Assembly: GCA_902806405.1 (NCBI GenBank)
Contig: CADCWL010000247.1
Span: 71 to 64,070, forward strand
Origin: an uncultured Thermomicrobiales bacterium
Lineage (GTDB): Bacteria; Chloroflexota; Chloroflexia; Thermomicrobiales; UBA6265
Length of the DNA stretch: 64,000 bases
Direction of reading: 5' to 3'
Shown: positions 12,490 through 62,327 of the stretch, piece after piece
Layout: every line of letters begins with the position of its first letter
Position numbering within the stretch: position 1 is the first letter of the stretch
Notes under the pieces: generated by a model
Told to the model about the DNA's origin: nothing
Databases searched by the model: none
What the model saw: the letters and a program-made list of their open reading frames with translations, nothing else
Program-made: the position numbers and the translations under genes

Positions 12490-12505
12490 TGGACCGCGAT
12501 TTGCG
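12490..12505 (+). promoter_or_regulatory. Possible sigma-54 promoter for hsp20
   Basis: TGGACCGCGATTTGCG: GG-N10-GC with TTGC, but a degenerate -24 element. Confidence 0.4.
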
Positions 12506-12588
12506 TACCCCGCGGCGTGTCCGTCACTCGGTACCGGCGGCACCGTCCCCGTCGCACCGGATGCCCACGGCAAGAAGGAGTGCCCGCG

Positions 12589-13143
12589 ATGAGCAGCACC
12601 CGATGGGACCCCTTTAGCGACCTAGTCAGCCTGCGGGAGGCGATGAACAACCTGCTCGAAGAGAGTTTCGTGCGTGGCCCCGGCGAAGGCGCAACCCCGG
12701 GTGCTGCCCCCGGCGGCGGAGCCCCTGCCGGACTGGCGATCGACGTCCGGGAGACGCCGGAAGCCTTCACCGTCACCGCCTCGGTGCCCGGCGTCAAGCC
12801 GGGGGACGTCGACATCAGCGTCCTCGGCGACACGCTGCGCATCAGGGGCGAACGCCGGGACGAGCAGGAGAGTCCCCCTCAGGCCGGCGGGACGCGGTGG
12901 ATCGTCCGCGAGCGCCGCCTCGGCGCCTTCGAACGAACCGTCCGTCTCCCGGCAGCCGTCCACTCCGGTGCCGCCGATGCCGAGTTTAAGGACGGTGTCC
13001 TCACCGTCACCCTCCCCAAGGCCGACGAGGCCCGGCCGCGCAGCGTTCCGATCCGCTCCGGCCAGGCCGCGACTTCGCAAGCCCGACCGATCGACGTCGT
13101 CAGCGACGGCGGGAACCGGTCGGGACAGCCCACCACGGGATAA
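12589..13143 (+). CDS. Hsp20/alpha-crystallin small heat-shock protein
   Basis: WDPF N-terminus, DVRET, PGV, ERR.G.FER, A.FKDGVLTVTLPK; AAGGAG RBS. Confidence 0.93.
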   Translation: MSSTRWDPFSDLVSLREAMNNLLEESFVRGPGEGATPGAAPGGGAPAGLAIDVRETPEAFTVTASVPGVKPGDVDISVLGDTLRIRGERRDEQESPPQAGGTRWIVRERRLGAFERTVRLPAAVHSGAADAEFKDGVLTVTLPKADEARPRSVPIRSGQAATSQARPIDVVSDGGNRSGQPTTG

Positions 13144-13177
13144 GAGGTGCCGGTTCCTCGCCAACTCCGACGCGAAC

Positions 13178-13205
13178 AGAGCGGCGGGGATTGCCCCGCC
13201 GCTCT
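13178..13205 (+). terminator. Hairpin after hsp20
   Basis: AGAGCGGCGGGG-attg-CCCCGCCGCTCT, perfect 12-bp stem. Confidence 0.6.
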
Positions 13206-13397
13206 CGCCAGTAGGTCGTCAATTTAGGTGCACGCCGTCCCCAGAAGTCTGTGATCGGGCTCCAAATAGTCTCAGTAAGCGAACCACGAAGAGCCGGTTC
13301 AAGTTCTTCTTACACTGTATGCGCGACCGGCCTTGCGTCCATCGTTCGCGCCACCCGATAACAGTCCGGCGCCGCCCCTGAACCCTCGTTCCGCACC

Positions 13398-14261
13398 CTA
13401 CCCTCGCACCCGCTCCACGGCGCGCTGGATGACCCGCCGTCCGTAGACCGTCAACAGGTGGCTCCGGTACGCCTCGGAGGCGTACAGGTCGCCGTTCAAC
13501 TCCAGCCCCTGGGGCACCGCAGCTGCGGCGCGGCCGATGGTCTCCGCTTCGAGCAACTGGCCGATCAGCGCCTGCTCGGCGGCCGTCGCCCGCGTCGCCT
13601 TCGAGGTTGCGCCGGTGACCGCAATCCGGGCGGATTGGCACGTCCCGTCGGCACCGAGGGTGAGCATCGCGGCAACGCCGACGACGGCGTAGCCCGAGGC
13701 GGGATGGCGGTGCTTCTCGTAGGCCGCACCGATCGTGCCAGACAACGCGGCGATGGAAATCTCAGTGATCACCTCGTCCGGCTGCAGCGACGTGGTCAGG
13801 AGGTCGACGAAGAGGTCGTCCGCGCTGATCGTCCGTTGACCGCCGGTGCCGACCGCGGTCACCTCGCCGCCGAGGGCGAGCATGACGGCCGTAAAGTCGG
13901 AGGCAGGGTCGGCGTGCGCCAGCGAGCCGCCCAGGGTGCCGCGGCTCTGGACCTGCTGGTCGCCGACGTTCTCGGCCGCTTCGCCCACCACCGGCAGCCG
14001 CTGCCGCAGCTCCGCCGAGTCGATCAGCTGGCGGTAGGTTGTCATCGCGCCGATGCGAACGCCGCCGTTGACGCTGACCCCGCGCAGGCCGTCGATCCGG
14101 TTCAGGTCGACGAGTGCCGACGGCGCCGCCAGGCGCAGCTTCATCGCCGGCATCAGGGAATGGCCTCCGGCCAGGATCTTCGCCTCCGGGTCGGCCTGGA
14201 GGAGGCCGACCGCCTCCTCGACGGAGGTCGGGCGGTGGTACGCGAACTGGTTGGGGAACAC
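13398..14261 (-). CDS. Xanthine dehydrogenase/CO dehydrogenase family FAD subunit (CoxM-like)
   Basis: AGGHSLMP, GTLGGSLAHADPASD motifs. Confidence 0.92.
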   Translation of the reverse strand: MFPNQFAYHRPTSVEEAVGLLQADPEAKILAGGHSLMPAMKLRLAAPSALVDLNRIDGLRGVSVNGGVRIGAMTTYRQLIDSAELRQRLPVVGEAAENVGDQQVQSRGTLGGSLAHADPASDFTAVMLALGGEVTAVGTGGQRTISADDLFVDLLTTSLQPDEVITEISIAALSGTIGAAYEKHRHPASGYAVVGVAAMLTLGADGTCQSARIAVTGATSKATRATAAEQALIGQLLEAETIGRAAAAVPQGLELNGDLYASEAYRSHLLTVYGRRVIQRAVERVRG

Positions 14262-14294
14262 CGCGGCTCCTTTCGCTCGGGTGGCGGTCGGCGG

Positions 14295-14837
14295 TTAGGC
14301 GTTCTGGCTGGAGCTGGCGCTCGCAGCCTGAGGGGTGGACCCACCGCCGCCGATCTGGCCAGCGGCGTGCTGGACCGCGCGGACGATGTTCTGGTAACCG
14401 GTGCAGCGGCAGAGATTCCCATCGAGCGCGTGGCGAATCTCCGCCTCGGTCGGGTTCGGGTTCCGCTGCAGCAGAGCGTGGGAGGACATGATCATGCCGG
14501 GGGTGCAGTATCCGCACTGGAGCCCATGTTCCTCCCAGAAGCCCTGCTGGACCGGGTCGTAGGTCCCTTCCTTGGCGAGCCCCTCGATCGTCGTGACCTG
14601 ACCACCATCGGCCTGGACCGCGAGCAGCGTGCAGCTCTTGATCGAGTCCCCGTTCAGGTAGACGACGCAGGAGCCGCACTGACTGGTGTCGCACGCGACG
14701 TGGGTTCCGGTCAACCCGAGGTTGTCCCGCAGGAAATGGACGAGGAGCAACCGCGGCTCGACCTCGGCCGCGTAGACCGTGCCGTTGACCGTCATCCGCA
14801 CGGCCACCTTCGCCGGCGCCGTCAGCGTCTCCGCCAT
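14295..14837 (-). CDS. (2Fe-2S)-binding small subunit (CoxS-like)
   Basis: [26 protein letters not shown]; start at MAETLT (ATG 14837). Confidence 0.93.
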
Positions 14838-15077
14838 TGTTGTCCGTTCTCCTTTGGTGAAGCCGTCGCCGGCACCGCAGCCAGGCGGTTCGGGCCGTCG
14901 CGGCCGTTCGCTCAGCGCCGATCGGCGCGCGCCTGCGCCGGTACGTCGCCGACCGGTCGCCTCCGTCCGGTCTCGAGGTGGCTCGCCACCCAAGCCGCGG
15001 GAGTATACCGTCGAGCCACCGAGGCGTCTGTATCCCCGCAGCCGCTACCTGATTGTACCGGCGACGGCTCCGCATCC

Positions 15078-16118
15078 CTAGCCGGCGGCCGCCGGGAGCG
15101 TCCCGGCGGCCGCCAGGCGCCAACCGTACTGTCGCTCATGGTAGTCGGCGAACGCCTGCCCCTCGCGGATCGCCCTCCACCAACCCGGGTTGGCCACGTA
15201 CCAGTCGACCGTGTCGTTCAAGGTCGACATGAAGTCGCGCCGGGGAGCCCAGCCGAGCTCGCGCCGCAGCTTGCCCGGGTCGAGTGCGTAGCGCCGGTCG
15301 TGGCCGGGGCGGTCCGGCACGTAGGCGATCAGGCTCTCCGGCTTGCCCAGGCGGGCCAGGATGGCCCGCACCACCTCCAGATTAGGCCGCTCGTTGCCGG
15401 CGCCGACGTTGTAGGTCTCGCCGGCGGTCCCTTTGCGTAGGACGAGGTCGATCGCGGCGGCATGGTCCTCCGCGTGGAGCCAGTCGCGGATCTGCTGGCC
15501 GTCGCCGTAGACCGGCAGCGGCTTGTCCTCCAGCGCGTTCGTCACGAAAAGGGGAACGACCTTCTCCGGGTACTGGCGGGGGCCAATCGTGTTGCAGCCA
15601 CGGGTGACGACGGTCTCCGTCCCATAGGAGACGGCGTAGGCGCGGCACATCAACTCTCCGCCCGCCTTCGACGCCGCGTACGGGGAGCGGGGCAGCAGCG
15701 CGTCCCCCTCCACCGAGTGGGTCCCGGGGGGGATGTCGCCGTAGACCTCGTCGGTGCTGACCTGGAGCATCCGCCGGTTGTGGCGGCGCGCCGCGTCGAG
15801 GAGCGTCATCACCCCGACGACGTTGGCGCGGGCGAAGGCCTCCGGGTCGAGCAGCGAGCGGTCGACGTGGGTCTCCGCGGCGAAGTTGACGACCGCGTCA
15901 CACTCCCCGACGAGGCCGTCGACCAGCGCGGCGTCGGCGATGTCGCCATGCACAAAGCGGTGCCGCCGGTCGCTCTCTAGCTCGGCAAGGTTCGCCGGGT
16001 TACCGGCATAGGTCAGCAAATCGAGGGTGACGACCTCATCCCCCGGGTGGGCGGCGAGAACGTGACGGACGTAGGCGGAGCCGATGAATCCAGCACCGCC
16101 GGTGACGAGGACGCGCAC
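15078..16118 (-). CDS. rfbB: dTDP-glucose 4,6-dehydratase
   Basis: GGAGFIG, AAETHVDRS, STDEVYG, YAASK, DRPGHD. Confidence 0.96.
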   Translation of the reverse strand: MRVLVTGGAGFIGSAYVRHVLAAHPGDEVVTLDLLTYAGNPANLAELESDRRHRFVHGDIADAALVDGLVGECDAVVNFAAETHVDRSLLDPEAFARANVVGVMTLLDAARRHNRRMLQVSTDEVYGDIPPGTHSVEGDALLPRSPYAASKAGGELMCRAYAVSYGTETVVTRGCNTIGPRQYPEKVVPLFVTNALEDKPLPVYGDGQQIRDWLHAEDHAAAIDLVLRKGTAGETYNVGAGNERPNLEVVRAILARLGKPESLIAYVPDRPGHDRRYALDPGKLRRELGWAPRRDFMSTLNDTVDWYVANPGWWRAIREGQAFADYHERQYGWRLAAAGTLPAAAG

Positions 16119-16331
16119 GAATCACACCTCCCGGCGCGCTGTGCCGCGCCGCTATGCCGCGCCGGACGGGACGACGGGCACCCCATTCGAACCCGAGACC
16201 GTTCCGCCGAGGTCCCGACGGGGGGCAGCACGCCCAGCTCGACGGGGCTGATCTCGGTGTCGGCCCTCTTCCCCGTCGCCTTCGGGAGCGCGAAACCGCG
16301 TGCGAATGGCTGCAGCAGAAAACCCGGCCCG

Positions 16332-17465
16332 TCAGACGACGTCGACCTGCGAATGATCGCCCAGCATCAGCCGGATCGCCTGCGGCTTCAGCGGCGAGCG
16401 CCCGACGACCACCTCGCGCCCAATCAAGGAATCGGCGATCCGACGTTCGACGTTCCGGATCGTGCTCCCTTCGAGCACGATCGAGTGCTCGATCTCGCAC
16501 CGCACCAAGTCGCAGCCCGGCCCGATCGCGGTAAAGGGGCCGACGTAGGCGTCCTCCAACCGCGTGCCGGCGCCGATGATCGCCGGGCCGCGAACGGTGC
16601 TACCGCGAACATCCGCGCCGGCCTCCACCACCACCGGGCCGACGAGGGTCGACTCGGCGTCGACGGTTCCCTCCACCCGGCCAGCGAGGGTAGCAAGGAC
16701 GAGCCGGTTCGCCTCCAGCATGTCGTCCTTCTTGCCGGTATCGATCCAATCGTCCTCGATGGTCGAGGACCGGACCGCTTTCCCGGCGTCGATCAGTCCC
16801 TGGATCGCGTCGGTGATCTCCAACTCACCGCGGGCGGAAGGGACCAGCAGCGGCGTCACGGCGTGGATCTCCGGACCGAAGAAATAGACCCCAATCACCG
16901 CCAGGTGGGAGATCGGTTCGTTCGGCTTCTCGACCAGGCGCCGGACCTGGCCCTCGTCGTCCAGGACGGCGACGCCGAAGGCGGCGGGATTCGGTACGCG
17001 CTTGAGCAGGATCTGGGCAGCGCAGTCGTCGGCTCGGAAACGGTCGGCGTGCCGCTCGATTCCCTCCTTCAGGAAGTTGTCGCCGAGGTACATGCAGAAC
17101 GGGACGTCGCCGAGGAATTCCTCGGCGGTTACGATCGCGTGGGCGAGCCCGAGCGGTGCCTCTTGCGGGAGAAAGGTGACCCGAGCGCCGAACGCGCTCC
17201 CGTCGCCGACGGCGGCCCGTACCTGGGCGCCGGTGTCCCCCGTGACGATCCCGATCTCGGTGATGCCGGCATCGACGAGCTGGTCGAGCGCGTAGAAGAG
17301 GACCGGCTTGTTGGCGACCGGGACGAGTTGCTTGGCGCCCGTGGCCGTCAACGGTCGCAGCCGAGAGCCCTTCCCCCCGGCCAACACCAGCCCCTTAAGG
17401 GGACGACCCCGAGCTCGCCGCGCGGTCGCTGCCGCGCACGGCGGGTCTACGACCGTTTCGGTCAT
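16332..17465 (-). CDS. rfbA: Glucose-1-phosphate thymidylyltransferase (long form)
   Basis: LAGGKGSRLRPLT..KQL, PSARGELEITD, C-terminal hexapeptide repeats. Confidence 0.94.
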   Translation of the reverse strand: MTETVVDPPCAAATARRARGRPLKGLVLAGGKGSRLRPLTATGAKQLVPVANKPVLFYALDQLVDAGITEIGIVTGDTGAQVRAAVGDGSAFGARVTFLPQEAPLGLAHAIVTAEEFLGDVPFCMYLGDNFLKEGIERHADRFRADDCAAQILLKRVPNPAAFGVAVLDDEGQVRRLVEKPNEPISHLAVIGVYFFGPEIHAVTPLLVPSARGELEITDAIQGLIDAGKAVRSSTIEDDWIDTGKKDDMLEANRLVLATLAGRVEGTVDAESTLVGPVVVEAGADVRGSTVRGPAIIGAGTRLEDAYVGPFTAIGPGCDLVRCEIEHSIVLEGSTIRNVERRIADSLIGREVVVGRSPLKPQAIRLMLGDHSQVDVV

Positions 17466-17717
17466 CGTCGCTCCTTCCGCGTGGCACATGAGCAAGGAGA
17501 ACCGGGGGTGGGGCGGCCATCCCCGCTGGCGATCACGTTTACCCCTCGATCGTCGATGCCCGGCATCGTAGCATCCTAGGGCGCGGCGTCGCGAGGTGGC
17601 GCCGCGTGACCGCCCTCCCGACGGTCGATGCTATAGTCGGGCCGGGTCGGGTCGAGGACGGCGGTAGCGGCCGCGCCGACCGCGCCGCCTCCCGTTTCCT
17701 GATCAGGAGTCCCAATC

Positions 17718-18998
17718 TTGTCGCCTCCGTCCCCGCCTACCGCGCCGGCCGCGGGGGACGCCTCGCCGTCCCCCGCGCGAAGTCGTGAGGCGGGCATCCG
17801 GGCGCGGGACCGCTTCTTCGGCGCCCTCGCCCGCTACCCGACCTTCCGTCGGCTCTGGTTCGGAATGCTCGCCGCCTCGATCGGACAGTGGATGCAGCAG
17901 GTCAGTCTCGGCTGGCTGGCACTGACGTTGACCGACTCGCCCTCCTTCGTCGGTTGGGTCACCTTCGCCGCCGGGCTGCCGTTCCTCGTCGTCGCGCCGA
18001 TCGGCGGCTCGCTGATCGATCGGCTCGACCGCCGTCGGTTGCTGCTCGGCTGCCAGGTCGCCGCCGCTCTGGTCGCCGTCGCCGTCGCCGCCGACGTCGG
18101 CGGCGGCTGGGTCCGTCCGTGGCACCTCCCCGTGATGGCCTTCGCCAACGGCTCGCTCCAGGCGTTACTAACCCCGACGCAGCAGTCGCTTGTGCCCGGC
18201 CTCGTCGCCCGGGCCGATCTGACCAACGCGATCGGCCTGATGAGCGCCGGCCAGAACATGACTCGCATCGTCGGCCCCTCCTTGGCCGGGGTCGTCATCG
18301 GGTGGATAGGGGTCGGCCCGGCGTTCGGGTTGCAGGCGCTGGCACTGGCCGGCGCCTTCGCGCTCGTGGTCGGCATCGCGCTGCCACCCCGAACGGCGCA
18401 GGGCGCCCGGCCCCGCGGCGTCTTCGACGGCATCCGGCTCATCTTCGCCAGTCCCGATCTGCGCGGCCTCTTTCTGGTCGCCTGCATCCCGACCCTTTTC
18501 GCCTTCCCCTACGTCCACTTCCTCTCCGTCTTCGCCCGCGATCTGCTCGGGATCGGCGCCGGCGGCCTCGGCCTTCTGATGGCCGCCTCCGGCACCGGAG
18601 CGGTGATCGGGTCGCTCCTGGTCGCCGGACGGCGGACGGCGGGCAGCGGTCGGTTCCTGCTCGCGAGCACAGTCGCCTACGGCGCCGTGATCGTCGCAAT
18701 CGCCCTCTCCCGCTCCGTCGTGCTCTCGCTGCCGCTCCTCGTCTGCGCCGGACTGCTCGGATCCAGTTTCATGAGCGCCGGCAACGCCCTGCTCCAGCAC
18801 CGGATCGCCGACGAGGTCCGGGGCCGCGTGATGGGCGCCTACCTGCTGACCTTCGGTCTGATGCCGCTCGGCGCCCTGCCAATGGGACTCGTCGCCGACC
18901 GCTTCGGGACGACGACGGCGGTGGTCGCCGGCGCCCTCCTCTCCTCAATCCTGACGGCCTGCCTTGGCTTGACCTTGCGGGAGCTGCGAGAGCTGTAG
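17718..18998 (+). CDS. MFS transporter (MFS_3/DUF894-like)
   Basis: About 12 TM helices, G..DRLDRRR motif A, RGRVMG. Confidence 0.9.
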   Translation: MSPPSPPTAPAAGDASPSPARSREAGIRARDRFFGALARYPTFRRLWFGMLAASIGQWMQQVSLGWLALTLTDSPSFVGWVTFAAGLPFLVVAPIGGSLIDRLDRRRLLLGCQVAAALVAVAVAADVGGGWVRPWHLPVMAFANGSLQALLTPTQQSLVPGLVARADLTNAIGLMSAGQNMTRIVGPSLAGVVIGWIGVGPAFGLQALALAGAFALVVGIALPPRTAQGARPRGVFDGIRLIFASPDLRGLFLVACIPTLFAFPYVHFLSVFARDLLGIGAGGLGLLMAASGTGAVIGSLLVAGRRTAGSGRFLLASTVAYGAVIVAIALSRSVVLSLPLLVCAGLLGSSFMSAGNALLQHRIADEVRGRVMGAYLLTFGLMPLGALPMGLVADRFGTTTAVVAGALLSSILTACLGLTLRELREL

Positions 18999-19251
18999 GG
19001 CGGAAAGTCCCGCCGTGACATGGCGCGACCGCCTCGCGGCCGGTCCCCGACGCATCCTCGCCATCCCCGGCCGACACCGAGCAACGTCCACGTTGCGACG
19101 ACAGATGAATCCCTCCACCGCAGCTTCCGTCAGGGCAAGATCCCTAACTCCTTGGGACATCAGAAAGGAAGGCCGGGTGAAGCGGACGCGACCCGGGCAG
19201 AGCGCCCCTAATGCGCGCGACCGAAGCCGAGCACGACGGTGAAGTTGCTAG

Positions 19252-20517: not shown

Positions 20518-20673
20518 CACCTCTCGCCGGATCGGCCGGCCACCCCCGAGCAGAGGATACCAGTCCGCCCTCGTCGGCCGGCGCTCCCCGCGCGCGATGC
20601 TAGAATCGCGATGCTGCTCCCTTCCCCAACCGAGCGTTCGCTGACGCCACGTGGACGCCGACCGGAGTGCGCC

Positions 20674-21030
20674 GTGACCGAGCAAACGACCCGCCCGACT
20701 CCTCCCTCGCCGCTCGATCCCTTCCTCGAGCCGTTCCTCCAGGCGCTGGCCGATCGGGCAGGCGGGTACGCCCCGACGGCGCACGGTGCCGCCCTTGCCC
20801 ACTCCCTCGGGTGGCCGCCCGCCTTTGCCGAAGCGGTGTTCGTCAGTGCCCGCTCCCGCGGTTTTCTGGAGCCATGCCGGGACCGCGCCGCCCGCGGCCG
20901 TGCCCGATGGGCGCTCTCCGAGCGCGGCCGGGCGTGGCTGTCCCGATCGGCGCCGGGCCCGGACCCCATGCCGCGCGACGATGCCACGCCGGCCGGGGCC
21001 GAGGCCTCGCTCGTCCCGCGCGACGGATAG
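20674..21030 (+). CDS. Small hypothetical protein, winged-helix-like
   Basis: GTG with GGAG RBS and extended -10 TGCTAGAAT upstream; LAHSLGW...RGFLE...RWALSERGRAWL resembles a wHTH wing. Confidence 0.6.
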   Translation: MTEQTTRPTPPSPLDPFLEPFLQALADRAGGYAPTAHGAALAHSLGWPPAFAEAVFVSARSRGFLEPCRDRAARGRARWALSERGRAWLSRSAPGPDPMPRDDATPAGAEASLVPRDG

Positions 21031-29614: not shown

Positions 29615-29755
29615 GCGGGTCCAATCCTCCGTCGCGCAGAAGGGGAGCGGGCACCGGCGCCCACCATCGCGCGGCGGGGCGCGAGAGGCCTCACGATACC
29701 ACGGCCGGGTGATGCCCAGAATCTACGCTGGATTCCGCCCCGCCGCCTGTCGACT

Positions 29756-29771
29756 AGGCACCGTTCTTGCA
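29756..29771 (+). promoter_or_regulatory. Sigma-54 -24/-12 promoter
   Basis: AGGCACCGTTCTTGCA vs consensus TGGCAC-N5-TTGCW; 72 nt before ATG 29843. Confidence 0.7.
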
Positions 29772-29842
29772 TCCCTCGAGATCGTTGTCAACGCAAGGGC
29801 GAGGCCGCCGGACGGGGGCTTCCGAGGGAGGAGATCGACGAG

Positions 29843-30088
29843 ATGGACGACCGACGCCAGCGCGGTTTCGAGCCGGTCCCGGAGGCGGGCGATGGGATCC
29901 CGGACGTCGTGGAGGCGGTCGAGCAGGGGGAGTTGACCGGCGAACAAGCCGCCGACCAGCTTCAGCAGGCAGCGCGCCGCCGCGTCGCCGAGGAGGGTCC
30001 GGCCCTGGACACCGATTCGGACGGCACCATCACCACCGGCGGCGCCGGTTCTGGCCAGGGCATGTCTCAGGCGCGAACGGGAAGCTAA
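29843..30088 (+). CDS. 81-aa acidic, hydrophilic small protein
   Basis: GAGGGAGGAG RBS; MDDRRQRGFEPVPEAGDGIPDVVEAVEQGEL...GGAGSGQGMSQARTGS. Confidence 0.75.
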   Translation: MDDRRQRGFEPVPEAGDGIPDVVEAVEQGELTGEQAADQLQQAARRRVAEEGPALDTDSDGTITTGGAGSGQGMSQARTGS

Positions 30089-30270
30089 CGCGACGGACCT
30101 TGGCTAGGCGCCGTACACGGTGTCGCCGCCCACCACGTCTCGGCCACCCCTCGAGACCCCCATCCCGTTGCGCGGGGGAGGTTCCCCATACCGCATGACG
30201 GTGGAGGTCTGAGCCGGTGCGGCGGAGGCGTTCGTTCCGTCGCCGCCCACCTTGGACGGTCGATTTCCCG

Positions 30271-30450
30271 CTAGTGCTGCTCCTCCTCAGCCGCCGCTTC
30301 GTCTTCAGCCTCATCGTAGCCACGCCGGCCGACGACCTCCCGCACCCGGGCCGACTCGGACGATTCTGACGTGTCGATCACCGCGTCGCGGCCGCGTGTT
30401 GACGCGGTCCCTCCCGAACCTTCGTTTTGCTCGTCGCTTCGCTCGCTCAT
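30271..30450 (-). CDS. 59-aa acidic, hydrophilic small protein (below the ORF-track cut-off)
   Basis: GAGGAGGAACA-ATG; MSERSDEQNEGSGGTASTRGRDAVIDTSESSESARVREVVGRRGYDEAEDEAAAEEEQH-TAG. Confidence 0.72.
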   Translation of the reverse strand: MSERSDEQNEGSGGTASTRGRDAVIDTSESSESARVREVVGRRGYDEAEDEAAAEEEQH

Positions 30451-30504
30451 TGTTCCTCCTCAATCGCCTTACCGAGCCTCGGTCCGGGTTCGGGCTGCTG
30501 GCGA

Positions 30505-30520
30505 TGCACGGGGTGTGCCA
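30505..30520 (-). promoter_or_regulatory. Sigma-54 -24/-12 promoter
   Basis: Minus strand TGGCACACCCCGTGCA; 55 nt before ATG 30450. Confidence 0.7.
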
Positions 30521-30692
30521 GGCGGGGGCGCGGCAGCCTTGCCCATTCCGCCGCGACGCCTTCCCGGAGCGCGAGATCCCTTCCGCCTGCGACCAGCGGT
30601 TCTTGCTCGGGATATCGTCCTTACGCTCGATCGCGGTGCCTCCGGCTCCATCGCACCAGCGGTCACACGTCGCCTTGCCGTCCGGCGCGCTC

Positions 30693-42802: not shown

Positions 42803-45088
<2,286 letters not shown>

Positions 45089-47608: not shown

Positions 47609-48652
47609 CGGCGGGCGCTGGCGTCCGGGCGAAGCCGCCGGGACGTCAACCCCAGCCAGGACCGGCCCGGGCCTAAACGGGCATCCTCGCCATCCATCCG
47701 CGCGTCGGCCACCCGCAGTTCTCGCCCGCGAAGGCGAGGATTGCATGCGGGGAGCACGTCGGCCGCACGGCCGAGGGCCTTCCCGCTCCCACCAACCCCG
47801 GCGAATGTCGCCGGCCTCTCAAAGATCAGCCAGCTGATCGTCGGCGCATTCGCGAAGCAAGGCCCCTTCGCCACCACCGAAAGAGCCTCGGAGGTGGTAA
47901 TCGACCTCGCACCGCGGCAGCGGCTTCCCATTGTCCATCGCTTCTCCGTCTAACCCGGCGCCAAAGCGAGCGGGAGAGCACCTCACACGGCACTCCGCCC
48001 GGCTGGCGCCATCCGGTCCGCCCGAACGACTCCCACCCACACAGAGTTATGCCAGGTGGATCAACCGGCGGGGCGCGAGACGGCGGACGAACCGCGACAC
48101 CTCGCCCCATCGTACAAAGGGGGTGGGAGCCGGACGGTCTGCTGCCGCACCGCAACCGGTCCCGCGCCGGAGGCGCCGGCGGCGGCTTGGCCCCGGTCGT
48201 CATCGTTGTCCAACGCCGATGCAGCAGAGCTAGCGGCCTACCTGCCGAAGCGGGCGACGAGGCATGCTCCCGACATCCCCTCGTCAGCGAGCGGCGGGCG
48301 ATAGACCGGGTCGGTGGTGTCCACTCGAGGACGTCGCGGCGCTAACGTTCGACATCCGGCCTCTACCCACTGCTGCCTACTGAGCGACCTCGGCACCGCT
48401 CGTCGGTTCGATGCGGCCGATCAAACGGGCTTCGACCAGGAGGTCGATCGGGAAGTCGGTCATCGGTCAGAAACTCGCCGCGGGCACCACGGATTCCGGA
48501 TCGCTGCAGGTCGTAACCGGCGGCGCCCGTGGATCAGTCACACCAGCGGAATGGGAGGGCCGGAGACCGCCGACGCGGCATCCCGCGGTCCTGCAGCGAC
48601 GTACCTCCGCGCGACCGGGCCTCAACGCCGCTCAAGAACCGGGATGGTGTGC

Positions 48653-48692
48653 AAAAAGCGGCGGCAGACGGGCCTACCCGTCCGCCGCCGCT
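48653..48692 (-). terminator. Rho-independent terminator of the GlsB/YeaQ gene
   Basis: Minus strand AGCGGCGGCGGACGGG-tagg-CCCGTCTGCCGCCGC followed by TTTTT. Confidence 0.8.
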
Positions 48693-48722
48693 ATTCCGAT
48701 TCGATTGGCACGCAGCCGGTTG

Positions 48723-48983
48723 CTAGATGCGGGAGCCGGTTCCCGTCTTCCGCAGCGCAAAGAGAACGCCTACCGAGCCGATGATGGCGACGATCAGCGA
48801 ACCAATGAAGTTGTTCGCGCCGGATCCGAAGATGACCCGCATCAGAAAACCGCCCAAGATGCCGCCGAGGATGCCGACGATGACGGCGCCGACGGCGCCG
48901 CCCGGCGTCCGACCCGGCACGATCAGGCTGGCCACGCCACCGGCGATGGCACCGACGATCAGCCAACCGATAATGGTGCCCAT
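48723..48983 (-). CDS. GlsB/YeaQ/YmgE family stress-response membrane protein
   Basis: MGTIIGWLIVGAIAGGVASLIVPG...IVGILGGILGG...AIIGSVGVL; GGGAGA RBS. Confidence 0.92.
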   Translation of the reverse strand: MGTIIGWLIVGAIAGGVASLIVPGRTPGGAVGAVIVGILGGILGGFLMRVIFGSGANNFIGSLIVAIIGSVGVLFALRKTGTGSRI

Positions 48984-49082
48984 GCTGTTCTCCCGGCGCG
49001 TCTCGCGCCCGTCTCGTCGCGTCTCGCCCCCGAGACACCGTCGGCGCGCGAGGACGTCGCGTAGCGCCGGCTGCACCGCAGA

Positions 49083-49098
49083 AGCAACCGCCGTGCCA
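49083..49098 (-). promoter_or_regulatory. Sigma-54 -24/-12 promoter (perfect consensus)
   Basis: Minus strand TGGCACGGCGGTTGCT; 100 nt before ATG 48983. Confidence 0.8.
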
Positions 49099-49215
49099 CG
49101 CGCTGTGCCGCCCGCCACTCGATCTCCTCGGCCCGCCGAACCCAGACCGAAACAACGATCGCGCCGATTTGGGCACCACGCCCAAGGTATCCCCGTTGCG
49201 TGCCCAGCGAACCTG

Positions 49216-52616: not shown

Positions 52617-52621
52617 TTTGC

Positions 52622-54202: not shown

Positions 54203-54244
54203 CCACTCCGCGCGTCCTCGCGAACTGTGGGGAGCGGCGCCGCC

Positions 54245-54916: not shown

Positions 54917-55203
54917 CGTTGCGATCAACCGCAGTCGATAGCGATCCCTCCCCCATGCCCGGACTGGAGAACCACCTCCAGATGGTACGGGAGGCAAGGC
55001 CGATCGCCCCGATCGTTGTCTGTTCCCCGCCGCAATATCGTCACGGCCCGGCCGGAGGGGCGGGCCCGCGTCTCCGCCCTCGATCCCAGCCGCGTCTCGC
55101 TTGGAGCGTCACCGGGGAGGCAATCTGCTGTACGATCCGTTCGTTCGAGAGCTCCGCCCACTCCCTCACCGGAGAGCGGGGCTGGACAGGAGGGCGAGCA
55201 GCC

Positions 55204-56403: not shown

Positions 56404-56503
56404 CTAGAGACTCCGGGGCCGCGCCGTGCGCCGTTGCACGGCGCGGCGGTGTGCGGGCGTGGCGACGGGCGGCGCCCACGGAAGGGGAAGCGCGGGGAGG
56501 AAC

Positions 56504-56965
56504 TCAGGAGGCGCGCGGCACCGCCGCTACGGCGGGCACGGCGCGCGGGCGGGGACTCTGGTCGAGGAGATCAGCGAGGGTCATCGAGTCGAGGGAATCA
56601 ACGATCGCGTCCCGCATCTTGAGCCAGACCGGCCGCGTCTCGCAGCCGTCGATCAGCGGGCAGGTCTGGTCCGCCGGGTCCTCGGAGACGCAGTCCATCG
56701 GGGCCACCGGCCCCTCCATCACCCGGTAGACCTCACCAACCCTGACCAATTCCGGCGAGCGCGTCAGGCGGTAGCCGCCCTGGGCGCCCCGCTTGCTCTC
56801 CACCAGGCCGGCCCGTCGTAGGGGACCGATCAACTGCTCAAGATAGGCCGACGGGACGGACGACGCCTTGGCAACCGCCGCGATCGACATCGGACCGTCG
56901 CCGTAGTGGCGCGCCAGCGCCACCATCGCCCGGACCCCGTACTCCCCGCGGGACGACACCTTCAC
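56504..56965 (-). CDS. Rrf2 family regulator (IscR/CymR-like)
   Basis: YLEQLI, SKRGAQGGY, three C-terminal Cys (DC...TC.....C); upstream of iscS. Confidence 0.92.
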   Translation of the reverse strand: MKVSSRGEYGVRAMVALARHYGDGPMSIAAVAKASSVPSAYLEQLIGPLRRAGLVESKRGAQGGYRLTRSPELVRVGEVYRVMEGPVAPMDCVSEDPADQTCPLIDGCETRPVWLKMRDAIVDSLDSMTLADLLDQSPRPRAVPAVAAVPRAS

Positions 56966-57004
56966 GGAACACCGCCTTCATCCGGGGAGACGCTCCCCGA
57001 TGAG

Positions 57005-57033
57005 ACTGTACCCGCGGCGGCGAGAGGGGTCAA
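57005..57033 (-). promoter_or_regulatory. Sigma-70 promoter of Rrf2-iscS
   Basis: Minus strand TTGACC-17-TACAGT. Confidence 0.6.
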
Positions 57034-57226
57034 GGCAGCGAGCGGTGGGCGAAGCGCACCGGCGTACCTACCGTTGTCGTCGGCGTGCCGCGCGAGTGGT
57101 AAGCGCCGGCTCACGCGCAGGTCCGTTGAAGATCGCCGCCGCGCTCGGGACGACGGCCGGAACGGACGAGGTTCGAGTTGGGCGGTGCGTCGGAGAAGCG
57201 CCCGGACTCGGCACCCAACTCGCGGC

Positions 57227-58390
57227 TCACCGGGTCCAGGCGCGCACCCCCTGGCGAAAGGACGCGGCGAGGTCGGTCATCCGGCGGGCGGCGAGGGGGA
57301 ACGGGGCGAGATGGTGGTAAACGTGGACGAAGCGGTCGGCGGTGAAGATGCCACGGTATTGACCGTCCTCGGTCACCGGAATAGCCCACCGGTTGAGCCG
57401 ATTCATCCGGTGCTGGACGTCATAGACCGACTCATCGACGGTGGCCGTCACCACGTCCGGGTCCATCACGTCCGCCACCGTCAGGCGGGAACCGCCGTGC
57501 AGTTCGTGCAGCACATCGTGGCGCCAGAGCATCCCGACCACTCGGCCGCGGTCCGTCACCGCCAGATCGCGCGGCCCGCCGCGGAGCGCGTAAGCGAGGG
57601 GCTGGTGCGGCGCGATGCCGCCCATGTCCCACAGCGCGAACTGCCCGACCCGGAGGCGGCGCATCGCGCCTTCCAACCGCACCGCCCGCCCCTCCGCCTG
57701 GGCCATCACGACGATGAAGACGGCGATCAGGACCGCCGCCGGGTTCTGGAGCCAGACCAGGGAGACGATCGCCAGCGCGACCGCCAGCGCCTGCCCGACC
57801 AGGACCGCGGTCCGGGTCCCCGTTTCGCGGCCGACCACGAGTGTCAGCACCGCCCGCAACACCCGTCCGCCATCGAGTGGGAAGGCCGGCAACATGTTGA
57901 AAAGGACCATCAGGGCATTAGCGTAGAACAGCCAGACCAGGAGACTGCCGACCGACACGCCGAGCGCGAGATCGACGTACTCCCCGCCAGAGGCGAGGCC
58001 GTGCGTCACCCCGTAGAGGAGGATGACCGGCGCCAGCGCCACCATCACCGCCACGTTCATCGCCGGCCCGGCGAGCGCGATCAGGACCTCGGTCGACGGG
58101 CGCGAAGGAACATGCTCGGTGCGGGCGACGCCGCCGATCACGGAGAGGGTCACGTCGTGCACCCGGACGCCAAAATGCATCGCCATGAAACTGTGCCCGA
58201 GCTCGTGGAGGAGCACGCAGGCGAAGACGAGCCCAACGAGGAGCAGTCCGAACAGGACCGCGACAATCCCGGCGAGGCCGGAGGCATCGGTCCCCCACTG
58301 GAAGAAGACATAGAGGAAAACCAGCCCGAAGCTGGGGTGAAGCTTGACCTCGACGTCCCGCACGCGGCCAAGCGTGAACGTACCCACCAT
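57227..58390 (-). CDS. Site-2 protease (M50) with C-terminal CBS domains
   Basis: HELGH, AGPAMN, FNMLPAFPLDGGR, CBS pair (TVADVM, IPVTEDG). Confidence 0.93.
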   Translation of the reverse strand: MVGTFTLGRVRDVEVKLHPSFGLVFLYVFFQWGTDASGLAGIVAVLFGLLLVGLVFACVLLHELGHSFMAMHFGVRVHDVTLSVIGGVARTEHVPSRPSTEVLIALAGPAMNVAVMVALAPVILLYGVTHGLASGGEYVDLALGVSVGSLLVWLFYANALMVLFNMLPAFPLDGGRVLRAVLTLVVGRETGTRTAVLVGQALAVALAIVSLVWLQNPAAVLIAVFIVVMAQAEGRAVRLEGAMRRLRVGQFALWDMGGIAPHQPLAYALRGGPRDLAVTDRGRVVGMLWRHDVLHELHGGSRLTVADVMDPDVVTATVDESVYDVQHRMNRLNRWAIPVTEDGQYRGIFTADRFVHVYHHLAPFPLAARRMTDLAASFRQGVRAWTR

Positions 58391-58618
58391 GCCGCCCCGC
58401 GCTTCGCGCTACGCCCCTGCGTCGCCGGTCCGTCAAACATTAAGTCGCGCCACCTGACGATCACAATTATACAGTCAACGTGCGACGCCGCATAACGCCG
58501 CGCACCCGAACGTCGACTGCACCGCCCCGTCGAAAGGAGCGAACGGGGACGACCGCCGATTGCGTCAAAGGAGTAGAGGAACACAACCTCCTGCTCGCTT
58601 GGGGAAGGAAGAGAATTC

Positions 58619-58634
58619 TGCAAGATTGTTGCCA
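58619..58634 (-). promoter_or_regulatory. Sigma-54 -24/-12 site antisense to and overlapping the rpoN promoter
   Basis: Minus strand TGGCAACAATCTTGCA. Confidence 0.7.
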
Positions 58635-58657
58635 CCGTTCCAGGGCGTGCCTATACT
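58629..58657 (+). promoter_or_regulatory. Sigma-70 promoter of rpoN
   Basis: TTGCCA-17-TATACT. Confidence 0.7.
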
Positions 58658-58774
58658 GGCGAGGCGGTCGTGTGCCAGTTAGGCAGCACGGCCGCGATCG
58701 CCGGGAGCGCGCAGCCCCCCGCGACGCTGCAGGCCTTGGCGCTGCGGACCGATTGGGATGAGAGGACAACGGGG

Positions 58775-60322
58775 ATGGAAAGCGGGTTCGAACTCTCGCA
58801 CGAGATGCGAACCTGGGTGTCGCCCAGTCTGATCGAGGCGAACCACATCCTCAGCCTCTCGCGGCAGGAGCTCCAGGCCGCCGTCGCCGCCGAGATGGAG
58901 GCGAACCCGGCGCTGGAGATGGACGAGCGCCAGACCTGCCCGCTCTGCGGCAACGTCCTCGACGGCACCTTCTGCACCGTCTGTCTCGTCAGTCAGCGCA
59001 CCGACGCCAACCCCGAGAGCTACGAGGACTTCCCCGAGACCGCCGCCACCGGCAACCAGACCTCCGACGACAGCGACGACTTCGACCCGATGACACTTAT
59101 CGCCGAGGACTTCGGCCTCCGCGAGCAGATTCTGGCCGACGCCCGCACGATCCTCGAGCCGGAGGAGTACCCGATCGCCGAGTACCTCGTCGACTCGATC
59201 GACGACCGCGGCTTCCTTGCCGCCGACACCGCCGAGCTTGCCACCCTCCTCGACCGCCCGATCGAGGAGATCGAGGGGATTGTCGAGGTGATCCAGGACG
59301 TCGCCCCGGTCGGCGTCGGTGCCCGCAACCTCCGCGAGTGTCTCCTCCTCCAGCTCCGCTTCCTACTGGAGAGCGGACACCCGGCGCCGCCCCACGTTGG
59401 GCGGATCATCGCCACGCACCTCCCCGAGTTCGGTGCCCACAAGTACGGCCAGATCGCCAAGGATCTGGGCCTTACCGCCGAGGACGTGGAGGCCGCGCGC
59501 GATTTCATCCGTACCCACCTCAACCCGTTTCCGCTCCAGACCCAGCAGGCCCGCTCCTGGCGGACACCGACCCGATCCCCCTTCGTCGCCCCGGACGTGA
59601 TCATCTCGATCAAGGACGGCGCCCTCCACGTCGAGGTGGTCGAGACCAAGCACTTTCACCTTCGCCTGAGCCCCATCTACGACCGCCTCGGTGAGGCGAC
59701 CGGCCGCCGCAGGTCCGCCGCGAAGGCGAACGGCGCAACCACCACCGGCAGCGCCACCTCCGCCAACGGCACCGTCGCCCTCGTCACCGGCAACGGAGCC
59801 TCTAATGGGCACGCCGTCGCTCCCATCGCCACCACCCGGCCGCTCGCCTCCCTCCTCACCTCGGACGAGGACCGCGCCCACGTCCGCCAGTACTCCTCGC
59901 GCGCCAAAGTCTTCATCTCCAACATCCAGCAGCGGCGCGAAACGCTGCTCAAGATCAGCCGCTGCATCTGCGGGCTGCAGGAGAGCTTCCTGCGGGGCGG
60001 CGTGAGGGAACTTGTCCCGTTGACGCGAGCGGTCGTCGCCCAGCAGGTCGGCGTCCACGAGTCGACGGTGAGCCGTGCGACGGCGAACAAGTACGTGATG
60101 CTGCCGACCCGCAAGGTGATCCCTTTCAGCGACTTCTTCACCCCCTCCCTCAGCACCAAGGATGTGATCAAGGAACTGATCGAGCGGGAGGCAAAGAAGG
60201 GCGAGCCGCTGACCGACCGCCGCATCTGCGACCTCCTCCTCAAGCAGGGTATCCGGATCGCCCGCCGGACCGTCGCCAAATACCGCGCCGAGCTCGGCAT
60301 CCTCCCTTCGACAATGCGGTAG
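58775..60322 (+). CDS. rpoN: RNA polymerase sigma-54 factor, atypical (Zn-ribbon insertion)
   Basis: NPALE, IDDRGFL, PVGVGARNLRECLLLQL, HTH VGVHESTVSRA, RpoN box ARRTVAKYR; ATG 58775. Confidence 0.93.
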   Translation: MESGFELSHEMRTWVSPSLIEANHILSLSRQELQAAVAAEMEANPALEMDERQTCPLCGNVLDGTFCTVCLVSQRTDANPESYEDFPETAATGNQTSDDSDDFDPMTLIAEDFGLREQILADARTILEPEEYPIAEYLVDSIDDRGFLAADTAELATLLDRPIEEIEGIVEVIQDVAPVGVGARNLRECLLLQLRFLLESGHPAPPHVGRIIATHLPEFGAHKYGQIAKDLGLTAEDVEAARDFIRTHLNPFPLQTQQARSWRTPTRSPFVAPDVIISIKDGALHVEVVETKHFHLRLSPIYDRLGEATGRRRSAAKANGATTTGSATSANGTVALVTGNGASNGHAVAPIATTRPLASLLTSDEDRAHVRQYSSRAKVFISNIQQRRETLLKISRCICGLQESFLRGGVRELVPLTRAVVAQQVGVHESTVSRATANKYVMLPTRKVIPFSDFFTPSLSTKDVIKELIEREAKKGEPLTDRRICDLLLKQGIRIARRTVAKYRAELGILPSTMR

Positions 60323-60950
60323 TACCGGCTTTGCGACCGAATCTGGTCGGACTAGAAATTTCTCGAAGCGTCGTCACCGACCTCCCCGTTCCCTGTCGCT
60401 CGGAAGCACCGGGCCCTCCTCCGCCGCGAAAGCGGCTCGGGAGTCTCCCTTGGCGCTGCCGCCCGCGACACCCCACGGGCTTCCCTTCCACGCCTTGTCC
60501 CGAGAGACGAGGCTCCCTCCCCGGCTCGGGCCGAGAGGCGTCCTACCACAGCCCCAACCACGCCGCCTCGACCGCCATCCCTCTCGCCGCTTGGTCGTGC
60601 CCACGAACCGAGGATCCTCGCCCACGCCCACCTCAGGGCGAAAATTCTTCCTGCCCCGGAAGGGCAAGCACCTCATGGTGGAAGGCGAGCGGCGGGACAG
60701 CGGCCGCCGGGATGGGGGAGCGGGGCCACAGGCGAGAGCCCGGACGGTAGGACTATTGGCAAGGAAAACGACGCAACGTGGACATGAGACGGTGCCGCGA
60801 GCCGCCGTCGCCATCTCCTCGTGCGCTGAAGGTATACCGAGGAGTCCGCGCAGGGATGTTGCACCCCCGCGCCACACTCAGCGGTATTGGAACGCCGCCG
60901 TAGCCCCGAAGCTCCCCAACCGACGGGACACCGAGGACGGCCCGCTCGCC

Positions 60951-62243
60951 TTACATCTCCGCCGTCGACTGATCCGTGTCGAGGACGAAGCGGAGCAGCG
61001 CCCCGACGCCGCCGAGGGCGTCGAGCCGGCGCCCAGCCTCGCTGCGGGGCACCGCGGCGTCGGCGTCGGGGATATGGGCCTGCTCCTCGGCGCCGACCGG
61101 GACGGCGGTGCGGACGATCTCGATCGCGGCGTCGCTGAGGATCGCCAGCCGGACCAGCTCCTCCTCCAAGCCGACGGGGACGATGACCCCCGGGTCGCCG
61201 GCGGCCGGGTGCTCCGCCGGCGCGTCACCGGCGCCGTAGAGGGGAAGCGCAAAATCGGCCCAGCCTTTGGCGGCGAAATCGTCGTTCATGATCAGGGTCA
61301 GGACCTGGCCCGCCTGGAGCGCCGTCAGCGTCTCCTCGATCCCCACGACGGCGCCCCCGCCGGGACCGGCGCCGTTCTCCAGCGAGCCGACCGCGGCCGC
61401 TTCCCGCTCCCGCTCCGCCTGCTCGACCAGCGGCAGGGTCGCCTCGACGATATCCCGCTCGCTGGCGCGAATATCAAGCCGGACCGAGCCGACAATCCGG
61501 TCACGAACGCTCTGGTGGAGTGTGTCGGTGAGCAGGGTAGTCGCCCGCTCATCGCCGGCGAGGACGAGCACGCCGATGCGCTCCCGGTCCATCAACAGCC
61601 GAACCTCTTCGACGACCGTGCGGGCGAAGGCGTCAGCGTGCTCCTGCGAGCGGCCGTCGTTCCGGCTCCGGGTCCCCGAGCCGTCGCGCGAGCGTCCGCC
61701 GGCGCCCCCCTCGACGTCGACGTGCCGTTCCCGCCGGGCCTGGTCGACCACCGTCAGCGACGCCTCCCGGCCGTCGGCGAGAAGCACGACATAGGGTGGC
61801 GCGTCCTCGGCGACGTGGGCGAGCGCGTGCAAGGCGGGGGTCGGACCGGCAACCATCCGGCTCGGCACCGGCACGCCGAGCGGCAGCGGTTCGAAGACCC
61901 CGGCCACCGAACAGGCAACGACGACCAAACCCTGGACGGCCGGGTCGACCTCGCCATCGAGGTACTCCCGGACCCGTGCCAGATCGTCGCTGAGGCTGTC
62001 GTGGGCGGGGGTGTGCGGCTTGTAGTCGGCGAGGAATTCGGCGCCGTTCTGGTCGAACCACTCCCGGCCGGCGCGGCGGTTCGGGCGGAACCCGTCCGGC
62101 TGCCAGTCGAGGCTCAGCGTCAGGTAGGGCGCCTCGGTCGAGGCCGGCAGGGCCGCCAGCCGCCGCAGAGCGCCGGCTAGGTCGGCGACGAACGGCGTGT
62201 CGTCGTGGTGCTGCTCCACCTGCTGAACGGGATCGGTTGCCAC
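60951..62243 (-). CDS. Bacterial archaeo-eukaryotic release factor family protein (baeRF/aeRF1-like)
   Basis: YLTLSLDW N-domain, YVVLLADGREA RNase H-like middle domain, LVLAGD, GIEETLTALQAGQVLTL and C-terminal GGVGALLRF (eRF1 domain 3); no GGQ. Confidence 0.88.
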   Translation of the reverse strand: MATDPVQQVEQHHDDTPFVADLAGALRRLAALPASTEAPYLTLSLDWQPDGFRPNRRAGREWFDQNGAEFLADYKPHTPAHDSLSDDLARVREYLDGEVDPAVQGLVVVACSVAGVFEPLPLGVPVPSRMVAGPTPALHALAHVAEDAPPYVVLLADGREASLTVVDQARRERHVDVEGGAGGRSRDGSGTRSRNDGRSQEHADAFARTVVEEVRLLMDRERIGVLVLAGDERATTLLTDTLHQSVRDRIVGSVRLDIRASERDIVEATLPLVEQAEREREAAAVGSLENGAGPGGGAVVGIEETLTALQAGQVLTLIMNDDFAAKGWADFALPLYGAGDAPAEHPAAGDPGVIVPVGLEEELVRLAILSDAAIEIVRTAVPVGAEEQAHIPDADAAVPRSEAGRRLDALGGVGALLRFVLDTDQSTAEM

Positions 62244-62311
62244 GCTGGTGTGCTCCTCTCGCTATCGCCCCTGCCCACCGGGCAAGAAAGCCGTCGTTAG
62301 CAGCGATGGCG

Positions 62312-62327
62312 CGCACACCCCGTGCCA
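62312..62327 (-). promoter_or_regulatory. Sigma-54 -24/-12 promoter
   Basis: Minus strand TGGCACGGGGTGTGCG; 69 nt before the baeRF start. Confidence 0.68.

Follow-up and report, generated by a model that had tools for sequence, protein, structure and literature searches.

A candidate sigma-54 regulon rich in stress-type proteins under a single enhancer-binding protein in an uncultured Thermomicrobiales bacterium

The genome of an uncultured Thermomicrobiales bacterium carries a large class of sigma-54-type (-24/-12) promoters, and one sigma-54 factor together with one enhancer-binding protein (EBP) probably runs about 60 to 90 of them as a general stress or desiccation/starvation program. The analysis started from a 64,000-nt stretch of DNA (the window; positions 71 to 64070 of contig C247) that encodes sigma-54 (rpoN) and belongs to a 4.62-Mb assembly (G000; 266 contigs, 71.8% G+C, 91% completeness, 2% contamination). 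A preliminary description of the window had listed five -24/-12 sites, upstream of two small acidic protein genes and of GlsB/YeaQ/YmgE-like, baeRF, and hsp20 genes, and had suggested that this lineage uses an atypical sigma-54 for general stress and dormancy rather than for nitrogen or motility genes. Judged from sequence, the sites represent a predicted promoter class that is supported both statistically and phylogenetically and that tracks the occurrence of rpoN and of the EBP: the GG and GC elements are 10 nt apart, and the sites are oriented toward genes, occur above chance, and are conserved.

The window alone cannot carry the claim of a regulon, because its matches to TGGCAC-N5-TTGCW with up to two mismatches (19) were not above chance (14.06 +/- 3.71 in shuffles, 10 of 100 of which reached 19). 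In the whole genome, all six perfect sites (GG and GC fixed) are non-coding and lie 55 to 170 nt before a correctly oriented open reading frame (ORF). Sites with one mismatch were found 40 times in non-coding DNA, which makes up 21% of the genome, and 22 times in coding DNA; with two mismatches the excess fades (151 non-coding versus 365 coding). We then scored sites with an 18-nt position weight matrix (PWM) built on this genome from 35 seed sites, the flanks of which are unrelated, so that the motif is not a repeat element. At >=14 bits, this PWM detected 66 non-coding and 14 coding sites. Intergenic sites numbered 65 at this cutoff versus 5.6 +/- 2.1 in 30 dinucleotide shuffles (maximum, 12), and 93 versus 16.2 +/- 4.5 at >=12 bits. 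Since the PWM had been trained on the same genome, contigs were split, and a matrix trained on one half was used for counting in the other; the excess persisted in both directions (26 versus 2.5 and 28 versus 3.2 sites). Shuffles and cross-validation were used because the reversed PWM yields more coding matches than the true one and is thus a poor null. A start codon within 300 nt is faced by 57 of the 66 sites, and 20 of the 66 have a start behind them; the median distance from site to start is 73 nt (10th to 90th percentiles, 48 to 130). The expectation that the motif exceeds background before gene starts was therefore borne out genome-wide, though the window by itself stays at chance level.

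The distribution of the machinery and of the sites was compared across 40 relatives drawn from the same family and order. The rpoN gene was detected in 27 relatives (plus a weak fragment in one more), and a strong Sigma54_activat match was detected in 26, as a single copy in 25 and as two copies in one genome. Both genes were present in 24 relatives and neither in 12; the remaining 4 had at most a weak match to one of the two, three of these being 65 to 86% complete and the fourth (G009) 91% complete. The 12 genomes lacking both include all four members of one family, with genomes of about 3 Mb that are 99% complete. For orthologues of three predicted targets, we asked for a site of >=12 bits within 350 nt upstream; the counts leave aside own-genome rows, one locus lacking upstream DNA, two duplicates, and two loci with no tblastn match. 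Sites preceded DUF892 orthologues at 14 of 16 loci in genomes with rpoN or the EBP and at 0 of 4 in genomes with neither. The corresponding values were 6 of 12 and 0 of 7 for Mn catalase and 11 of 17 and 0 of 10 for GlsB. Pooled, 31 of 45 loci had a site where rpoN or the EBP was present versus 0 of 21 where both were absent (29 of 42 versus 0 of 21 after removal of the unpublished genomes G006, G010, and G036, which are included in the counts for relatives), and the predicted conservation upstream of orthologues was thus observed. On the opposite strand, the DUF892 segments reached 12 bits in 1 of 20 cases. A count of perfect consensus sites in whole genomes, which is a weak test, gave 207 versus 127 for the reversed control in the strong-rpoN set (26 relatives and G000) and 56 versus 53 in the 12 relatives without rpoN and EBP. 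One genome classed among those with neither gene (G040) has 12 versus 6 perfect sites, and each of its two GlsB copies is preceded by one; a contig bearing rpoN and the EBP gene, which are adjacent in its genus, may have been lost from this assembly.

The sigma-54 of this genome is a 515-amino-acid (aa) protein (58775..60322, plus strand) with regions I and III and an RpoN box (ARRTVAKYR at aa 496; 60260-60286). Pfam recognized the activator-interacting domain of region I (31.2 bits), the core-binding domain (130 bits), and the DNA-binding domain (125.3 bits), and a phmmer search against solved sigma-54 chains gave an E value of 2.4e-40. Directly after region I, at aa 55 to 70 (58937..58984, plus strand), lies a zinc-ribbon-like Cys-x2-Cys-x8-Cys-x2-Cys (Cys4) motif, where solved enterobacterial sigma-54 proteins have an acidic region II with zero cysteines. 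The motif was found in 58 of 62 rpoN loci of relatives. Passages of PMC5095919 describe region II as acidic and largely non-essential; our literature search found no description of a Cys4 motif there, the zinc ribbon mentioned being that of TFIIB. The label "atypical" fits this protein in one respect, its region II; the three domains that define sigma-54, and the RpoN box, are all there.

Besides a single rpoN, just one true EBP is encoded. This orphan response regulator of the NtrC type, the gene for which lies on a different contig (C35), has a receiver domain (Response_reg, 100 bits), an AAA+ domain containing GAFTGA (Sigma54_activat, about 240 to 244 bits), and a C-terminal helix-turn-helix domain (HTH_8, 24.1 bits; cutoff, 22). 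Four further Sigma54_activat matches are weak (21.9 to 35.7 bits; cutoff, 20.2) and fall in other AAA+ frames, one being the 869-aa gene after hspR that had been named clpB in the preliminary description. The EBP gene is flanked by an aroK-like gene (by sequence reading) and an FGGY kinase gene, and no histidine kinase gene was found at the locus. In several relatives and in Chloroflexota further removed (G011, G012, G013, G028, G032, and G036; loci L111, L120, L124, L125, and L128), the single EBP gene lies within 1 to 3 kb of rpoN. In a sample of 150 Chloroflexota genomes, an EBP was detected in 62, and 47 of these have exactly one, which makes the one-activator layout a trait of the phylum.

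Sigma-54 cannot open promoters without ATP hydrolysis by an EBP. The single EBP would be phosphorylated by some kinase and would then open all sigma-54 promoters at once, producing a program of the kind that SigB, RpoS, or EcfG provides elsewhere. Outside the window, a HisKA-containing ORF (G000:C207:12701-13057) lies 211 nt behind a 12.7-bit site and hints, with low confidence, at a kinase that sigma-54 may control.

To characterize the content of the predicted regulon, the first ORFs behind 80 sites were classified by Pfam, genes having been called with our own codon-usage caller (4188 genes, 79% coding, approximate starts). Protective or stress-type families include Mn catalase, two Fe/Mn superoxide dismutases (SODs), BrxC (monothiol bacilliredoxin), DUF892 (ferritin-like), three DUF2382 (YsnF-type) proteins, four to five PRC-barrel proteins, DUF2171, the GlsB-like protein, two KaiC-like ATPases, two short-chain dehydrogenases/reductases (SDRs), BrkB/YihY, SnoaL-like, DoxX, Bax1-I, DUF2795, HhH-GPD glycosylase, SRPBCC, and baeRF. 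Other targets are erythromycin-esterase-like, luciferase-like, M50-CBS, transketolase, MarR, metallo-beta-lactamase fold, and Mo-oxidoreductase proteins. No Pfam family was assigned at an E value of 0.001 to 33 of the 80 targets, many of which are acidic hydrophilic or small membrane proteins; for the 76-aa protein behind the best promoter, a protein atlas returned unnamed clusters only. The sites are selective among members of a family, standing before 3 of 4 DUF2382 copies, 5 of 9 PRC copies, 2 of 3 SODs, 3 of 4 KaiC-like ATPases, and the only Mn catalase; among about 45 SDR paralogues, only 2 or 3 have a site. The targets are shorter than genes genome-wide (median, 197 versus 261 aa; <200 aa, 54% versus 38%; Fisher P = 0.018) and more acidic (pI below 5, 45% versus 24%). 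The proposed regulon "of small proteins" thus survives as a modest trend in length that does not define the set. Beyond the window end, the same contig carries a small cluster of predicted members, with four sites within 6 kb (G000:C247:118878-124908), before a 47-aa ORF and genes for a 120-aa membrane protein, a KaiC-like ATPase, and a SOD.

Based on these sequence assignments, the content appears to be much closer to that of general-stress regulons than to that of regulons for nitrogen or motility, and from content and habitat we infer activation by drying, starvation, or oxidants. Several points weigh against a general stress program. Hallmark stress genes are outside the set: none of four HSP20 genes, none of four Usp loci, and not the single hibernation-promoting factor (HPF) gene (5.8 bits) has a site, nor does any of 21 sigma-70-family genes at >=12 bits. 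At least 9 of the 80 targets are transporters or solute-binding proteins, which fit nutrient scavenging as well as stress, and the label "stress-type" leans partly on general knowledge of the SigB and RpoS regulons. The shuffles put the share of false sites at about 9% for scores of >=14 bits and at about 38% for scores of 12 to 14 bits, and the targets were taken as first ORFs from a crude gene caller of our own. Induction of the regulon by stress is a prediction. With the genome 91% complete, a second EBP could be missing. A common binding site for the EBP was also not found: within 220 nt upstream of each of 58 promoters, multiple testing removed all 6- to 8-mers (best P, 2e-5) and all 4-N(0-14)-4 dyads (best P, 1.5e-6 among about 200,000 patterns), and inspection of 15 DUF892 promoters by eye revealed no common upstream element. 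What stands of the original suggestion is a large, conserved sigma-54 set, broad in content and served by one EBP, that is rich in proteins of the SigB, RpoS, and EcfG type; hsp20 membership and the hibernation-factor element do not stand, and the dormancy element does so at most in part.

The transport genes invite another interpretation, namely, that the regulon is real and serves mainly nutrient limitation (nitrogen/carbon scavenging) in the classical manner of NtrC, with the stress genes as a side branch. Similarities to the enteric NtrB-NtrC system are the shared promoter class (-24 GG/-12 GC) and the EBP architecture (receiver, AAA+ with GAFTGA, and Fis-type HTH), and the targets include three SBP_bac_1 proteins, Peripla_BP_6 (branched-chain amino-acid binding type), an ABC exporter, a formate/nitrite transporter, a cNMP-binding symporter, and an S51 cyanophycinase-like peptidase. 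We nevertheless regard this interpretation as unlikely. Unlike in NtrB-NtrC, no kinase gene adjoins the EBP gene, one EBP would serve the entire set, and the classical nitrogen genes are not targets: scores before the four glnA genes are at most -1.4 bits and that before amtB is 7.3 bits, i.e., none has a site. P-II (GlnB/GlnK, PF00543) was not found despite the presence of amtB and four glutamine-synthetase-family genes, although its absence is not established, given that the genome is 91% complete; flagellin was likewise not found in this 91%-complete genome. These results agree with the earlier suggestion that the regulon is not one of nitrogen or motility. Moreover, among the 47 targets with a Pfam family, stress-type families are more numerous than transport families, and the conserved sites tested precede DUF892, Mn catalase, and GlsB genes. 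The solute-binding targets may still reflect a starvation or nutrient component of the stress program that we favor.

A narrower response to oxidative or redox stress, with oxidants sensed by the Cys4 motif of sigma-54 or by the EBP, would account for the two SODs, Mn catalase, BrxC, DoxX, the ferritin-like DUF892 protein, the luciferase-like oxidoreductase, and the SDRs, and the Cys4 motif is widely kept (in the 58 of 62 loci noted above). This alternative has little probability in our judgment, because GlsB, PRC/DUF2382, KaiC-like, acidic hydrophilic, baeRF, and solute-binding proteins have no evident redox role and a redox role of the Cys4 motif is itself only putative. A chance origin of the motifs in this GC-rich DNA, or their recognition by a factor other than sigma-54, is very improbable: loose matches in the window are no commoner than in shuffles, the excess of perfect sites in strong-rpoN genomes is small (207 versus 127), and one element (58619-, described below) is palindromic and could be an operator, but against this stand the intergenic excess (65 versus 5.6) with its cross-validation, the orientation of the sites toward starts, their unrelated flanks, the restriction of orthologue sites to genomes with rpoN or the EBP (31 of 45 versus 0 of 21), and the control-level counts in the 12 relatives lacking both (56 versus 53).

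A more far-reaching proposal, which we put forward tentatively, is that in Thermomicrobiales, and perhaps widely in Chloroflexota, a sigma-54 with a Cys4 insert in region II and exactly one orphan NtrC-type regulator could constitute a master switch for anhydrobiosis and general stress, in the role of SigB, RpoS, or EcfG, that was lost as a unit in some lineages. As the promoters would be silent without ATP hydrolysis by the activator, about 60 to 90 protective genes would switch all-or-none on one phosphorylation signal, and the sigma-54-like element that covers the -35 box of rpoN would add autoregulation.

Among known systems, the closest described layout is that of Chlamydia CtcB-CtcC/sigma-54, where sigma-54 and an NtrC-type activator control a global set of genes. 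Chlamydia differs in being an obligate intracellular parasite; CtcC is not known to have a DNA-binding domain, whereas the EBP described here has HTH_8. As reported in sections of PMC7482065, the sigma-54 regulon of Chlamydia trachomatis comprises 64 genes (28 with promoters; 64% hypothetical) and has been connected with the change to a resistant form that does not grow, with envelope and type III secretion proteins as targets. The Borrelia cascade likewise has a single NtrC-type EBP and sigma-54 atop an adaptive, stress-like program, and the single EBP of G000 corresponds to this arrangement. In Borrelia burgdorferi (Rrp2-RpoN-RpoS), however, essentially the only promoter driven by sigma-54 is that of rpoS, and RpoS takes over from there, whereas here the sites lie directly before effector genes and none of the 21 sigma-70-family genes has one at >=12 bits.

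In content, the regulon overlaps with that of EcfG in Alphaproteobacteria (catalase, PRC-barrel, and many unknowns). According to portions of PMC6599016, the EcfG regulon of Sphingomonas melonis includes catalases as well as a PRC-barrel gene that carries an EcfG motif, and about 40% of its genes have no assigned function. EcfG, SigB, and RpoS are sigma-70-family factors under partner switching or proteolysis, in contrast to the enhancer-dependent sigma-54 considered here. The overlap with SigB and RpoS regulons concerns members of the DUF2382, SDR, DUF892, and GlsB types. These members are YsnF (DUF2382), YdaD (SDR), YdbD, YciE/F (DUF892), and YeaQ/YmgE (GlsB). Escherichia coli also uses sigma-54 for stress, through dedicated modules that include RtcR and ZraR; each EBP there serves one or few operons, whereas here one EBP would serve about 60 to 90 promoters. 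PspF and NorR are listed among the sigma-54 stress modules of E. coli in parts of PMC3162934.

Four of the five sites reported in the window were recovered by the PWM (29756+, 30505-, 49083-, and 62312-; 13.4 to 21.4 bits), at distances to their starts (53 to 98 nt) that agree with those given. The fifth, before hsp20 (12490+), is present at its coordinate and was rejected, as it scores 3.0 bits with 3 consensus mismatches, and none of the four HSP20 genes of the genome has a site above 8.5 bits. A further match at 13724-13741 (minus strand; 12.9 bits) lies inside a called gene and was taken as chance. The gene labels for HSP20 and baeRF were clear in Pfam, and that for GlsB was weak.

The promoter candidate TAGGCACCGTTCTTGCAT (29755..29772, plus strand; 18.8 bits) lies 70 nt 5' of the start of a gene for an 81-aa acidic, hydrophilic protein (29843..30088, plus strand; pI 4.2; grand average of hydropathy, -0.85) with no Pfam family. 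Homologues of this protein were detected in 6 of the 40 relatives, all within the same family, and GGCACC-N-TTGC was the best upstream match in all 6 (10.8 to 14.4 bits; 4 of 6 at >=12 bits); a protein atlas search with the 81-aa sequence returned nothing usable. Convergent with this promoter, the candidate CTGGCACACCCCGTGCAT (30504..30521, minus strand; 21.4 bits) lies 53 nt 5' of a gene for a 59-aa acidic protein (30271..30450, minus strand), which has no Pfam family and a weak codon signal. The convergent site pair (29756+/30505-) recurs around the orthologous gene pair in two relatives (loci L215 and L216), where the second promoter precedes a gene for an "SYPYPQDR" hydrophilin. In L216, such a small hydrophilin gene behind a sigma-54 site is followed by a gene whose product is homologous to the 59-aa protein and shares its C-terminal motif, and for this reason the 59-aa ORF looks real despite its weak codon signal.

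The perfect-consensus sigma-54 promoter GTGGCACGGCGGTTGCTT (49082..49099, minus strand; 20.0 bits) lies 98 nt 5' of the gene for the GlsB/YeaQ/YmgE-like 86-aa membrane protein (48723..48983, minus strand), whose Transgly_assoc match (20.2 bits) is under the cutoff of 25.3 bits; a terminator-like hairpin is located nearby (48678-48663). The candidate CTGGCACGGGGTGTGCGC (62311..62328, minus strand; 13.4 bits) lies 67 nt 5' of the gene for a 430-aa baeRF-family (bacterial archaeo-eukaryotic release-factor-like) protein (60951..62243, minus strand; baeRF_family10, 59.2 bits). The baeRF gene is kept beside rpoN in 3 of 66 rpoN loci, each with a site 340 to 400 nt upstream (16.0, 15.9, and 21.1 bits) that is separated from baeRF by a small gene for an "SYPYPQDR" hydrophilin. 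This hydrophilin family of the relatives comprises highly charged proteins of about 80 to 90 aa that start with M-S-(S)-Y-P-Y-P-Q/E-D-R, each encoded directly behind a sigma-54 site and before baeRF or the 59-aa homologue (L067:6157-6587, L074:5999-6429, L078:5852-6225, L215:1788-2130, and L216:1077-1400); tblastn of the present genome gave no match to it.

In contrast to these sites, and in line with the preliminary description, the housekeeping genes examined in the window have predicted sigma-70-type promoters: TTGACA-17-TATACT (hspR), TTGACA-17-TATGGT (a 761-aa gene, 42803-45088), TTGACC-17-TACAGT (Rrf2), and TTGCCA-17-TATACT (rpoN). A scan for this promoter type found 4 versus 0.9 expected in one stretch and 2 versus 0.6 in another. 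Four biocrust RNA libraries gave patchy contigs over 29.5 to 49.4 kb, including one of 745 nt (29807-30551) and one of 982 nt (48125-49101). Because these contigs run across the promoter motifs, they are unable to place transcript starts and are neutral with regard to the predicted ones.

A sixth site in the window (58619-), absent from the earlier list, is a sigma-54-like element with a palindromic core upstream of rpoN (58618..58635, minus strand; 16.5 bits). Its plus strand reads as the palindrome GCAAGA-W-TCTTGC, the right arm of which is the -35 box of the sigma-70-type rpoN promoter (58629..58657, plus strand), and its minus strand carries TGGCA and TTGC, the invariant parts of a sigma-54 site. 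An equivalent element at >=11 bits was found in 52 of 63 loci of relatives. The rpoN promoter is kept in most of these 52 loci, both hexamers being retained in a motif-anchored alignment of 53 sequences. The element faces, at a distance of 230 nt, a gene assigned by Pfam to an M50 site-2-protease-like peptidase with a CBS domain (57227..58387, minus strand), which is divergent from rpoN and has a homologue in the same arrangement in 43 of 63 loci of relatives. The element may be a sigma-54 promoter of the M50-CBS gene, a site at which sigma-54 holoenzyme blocks the rpoN promoter, or an operator for another protein. About 80 nt before the M50-CBS start, an extended -10-like sequence, TGTATAAT (58466-58473, minus strand), was noted by sequence reading, so that the gene may own a sigma-70-type promoter nearer than the sigma-54-like element. 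On the minus strand past the element, nothing was conserved in the 52 relatives, and an Rfam scan of the window found zero families; a sigma-54-dependent small RNA at this position was accordingly dropped as a candidate. Many relatives have a plus-strand sigma-54 site before rpoN itself, which this genome does not.

The nearest public rpoN loci (53 to 76% protein identity) come from metagenome-assembled genomes (MAGs) labelled Thermomicrobiales, Sphaerobacteraceae, or Chloroflexia; rpoN is also present in MAGs labelled Sphaerobacter and Nitrolancea. DNA nearly identical to that of the organism (>=25% of sampled words) was detected in four studies, in metagenomes of biocrust and soil as well as in RNA libraries of biocrust, and the best match among these samples may be the source sample of the MAG. 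Such an occurrence in biocrust and dry soil fits the desiccation reading.

The proposed sigma-54 regulon for general stress or desiccation/starvation looks undescribed. Our literature search, which covered papers other than their supplementary tables, found no account of a sigma-54 regulon in either Thermomicrobiales or Chloroflexota apart from the presence of the genes: no paper linked Thermomicrobiales with RpoN, those matching Thermomicrobia and sigma-54 describe no regulon, and the combination of sigma-54, general stress, DUF892, and Mn catalase had no match. Passages of PMC3162934 that touch on the phylum state that sigma-54 and EBPs occur in "some Chloroflexi" and go no further.

Sigma-54 is commonly associated with nitrogen assimilation, motility, or stress modules that each serve a single purpose and together need many specialised activators. 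If true, a protective regulon that spans the genome under one activator would be a different use of the enhancer-dependent mechanism, and a role given to other sigma factors elsewhere would fall to sigma-54 here. About 30 small or unannotated proteins become candidate desiccation or stress protectants, including the 81-aa and 59-aa acidic proteins, the 76-aa protein encoded behind the best promoter, and, in the relatives, the "SYPYPQDR" hydrophilins. The phylum has been little studied and is prominent in drylands and biocrusts; the regulon would provide a first regulatory handle on how these Chloroflexota survive drying.

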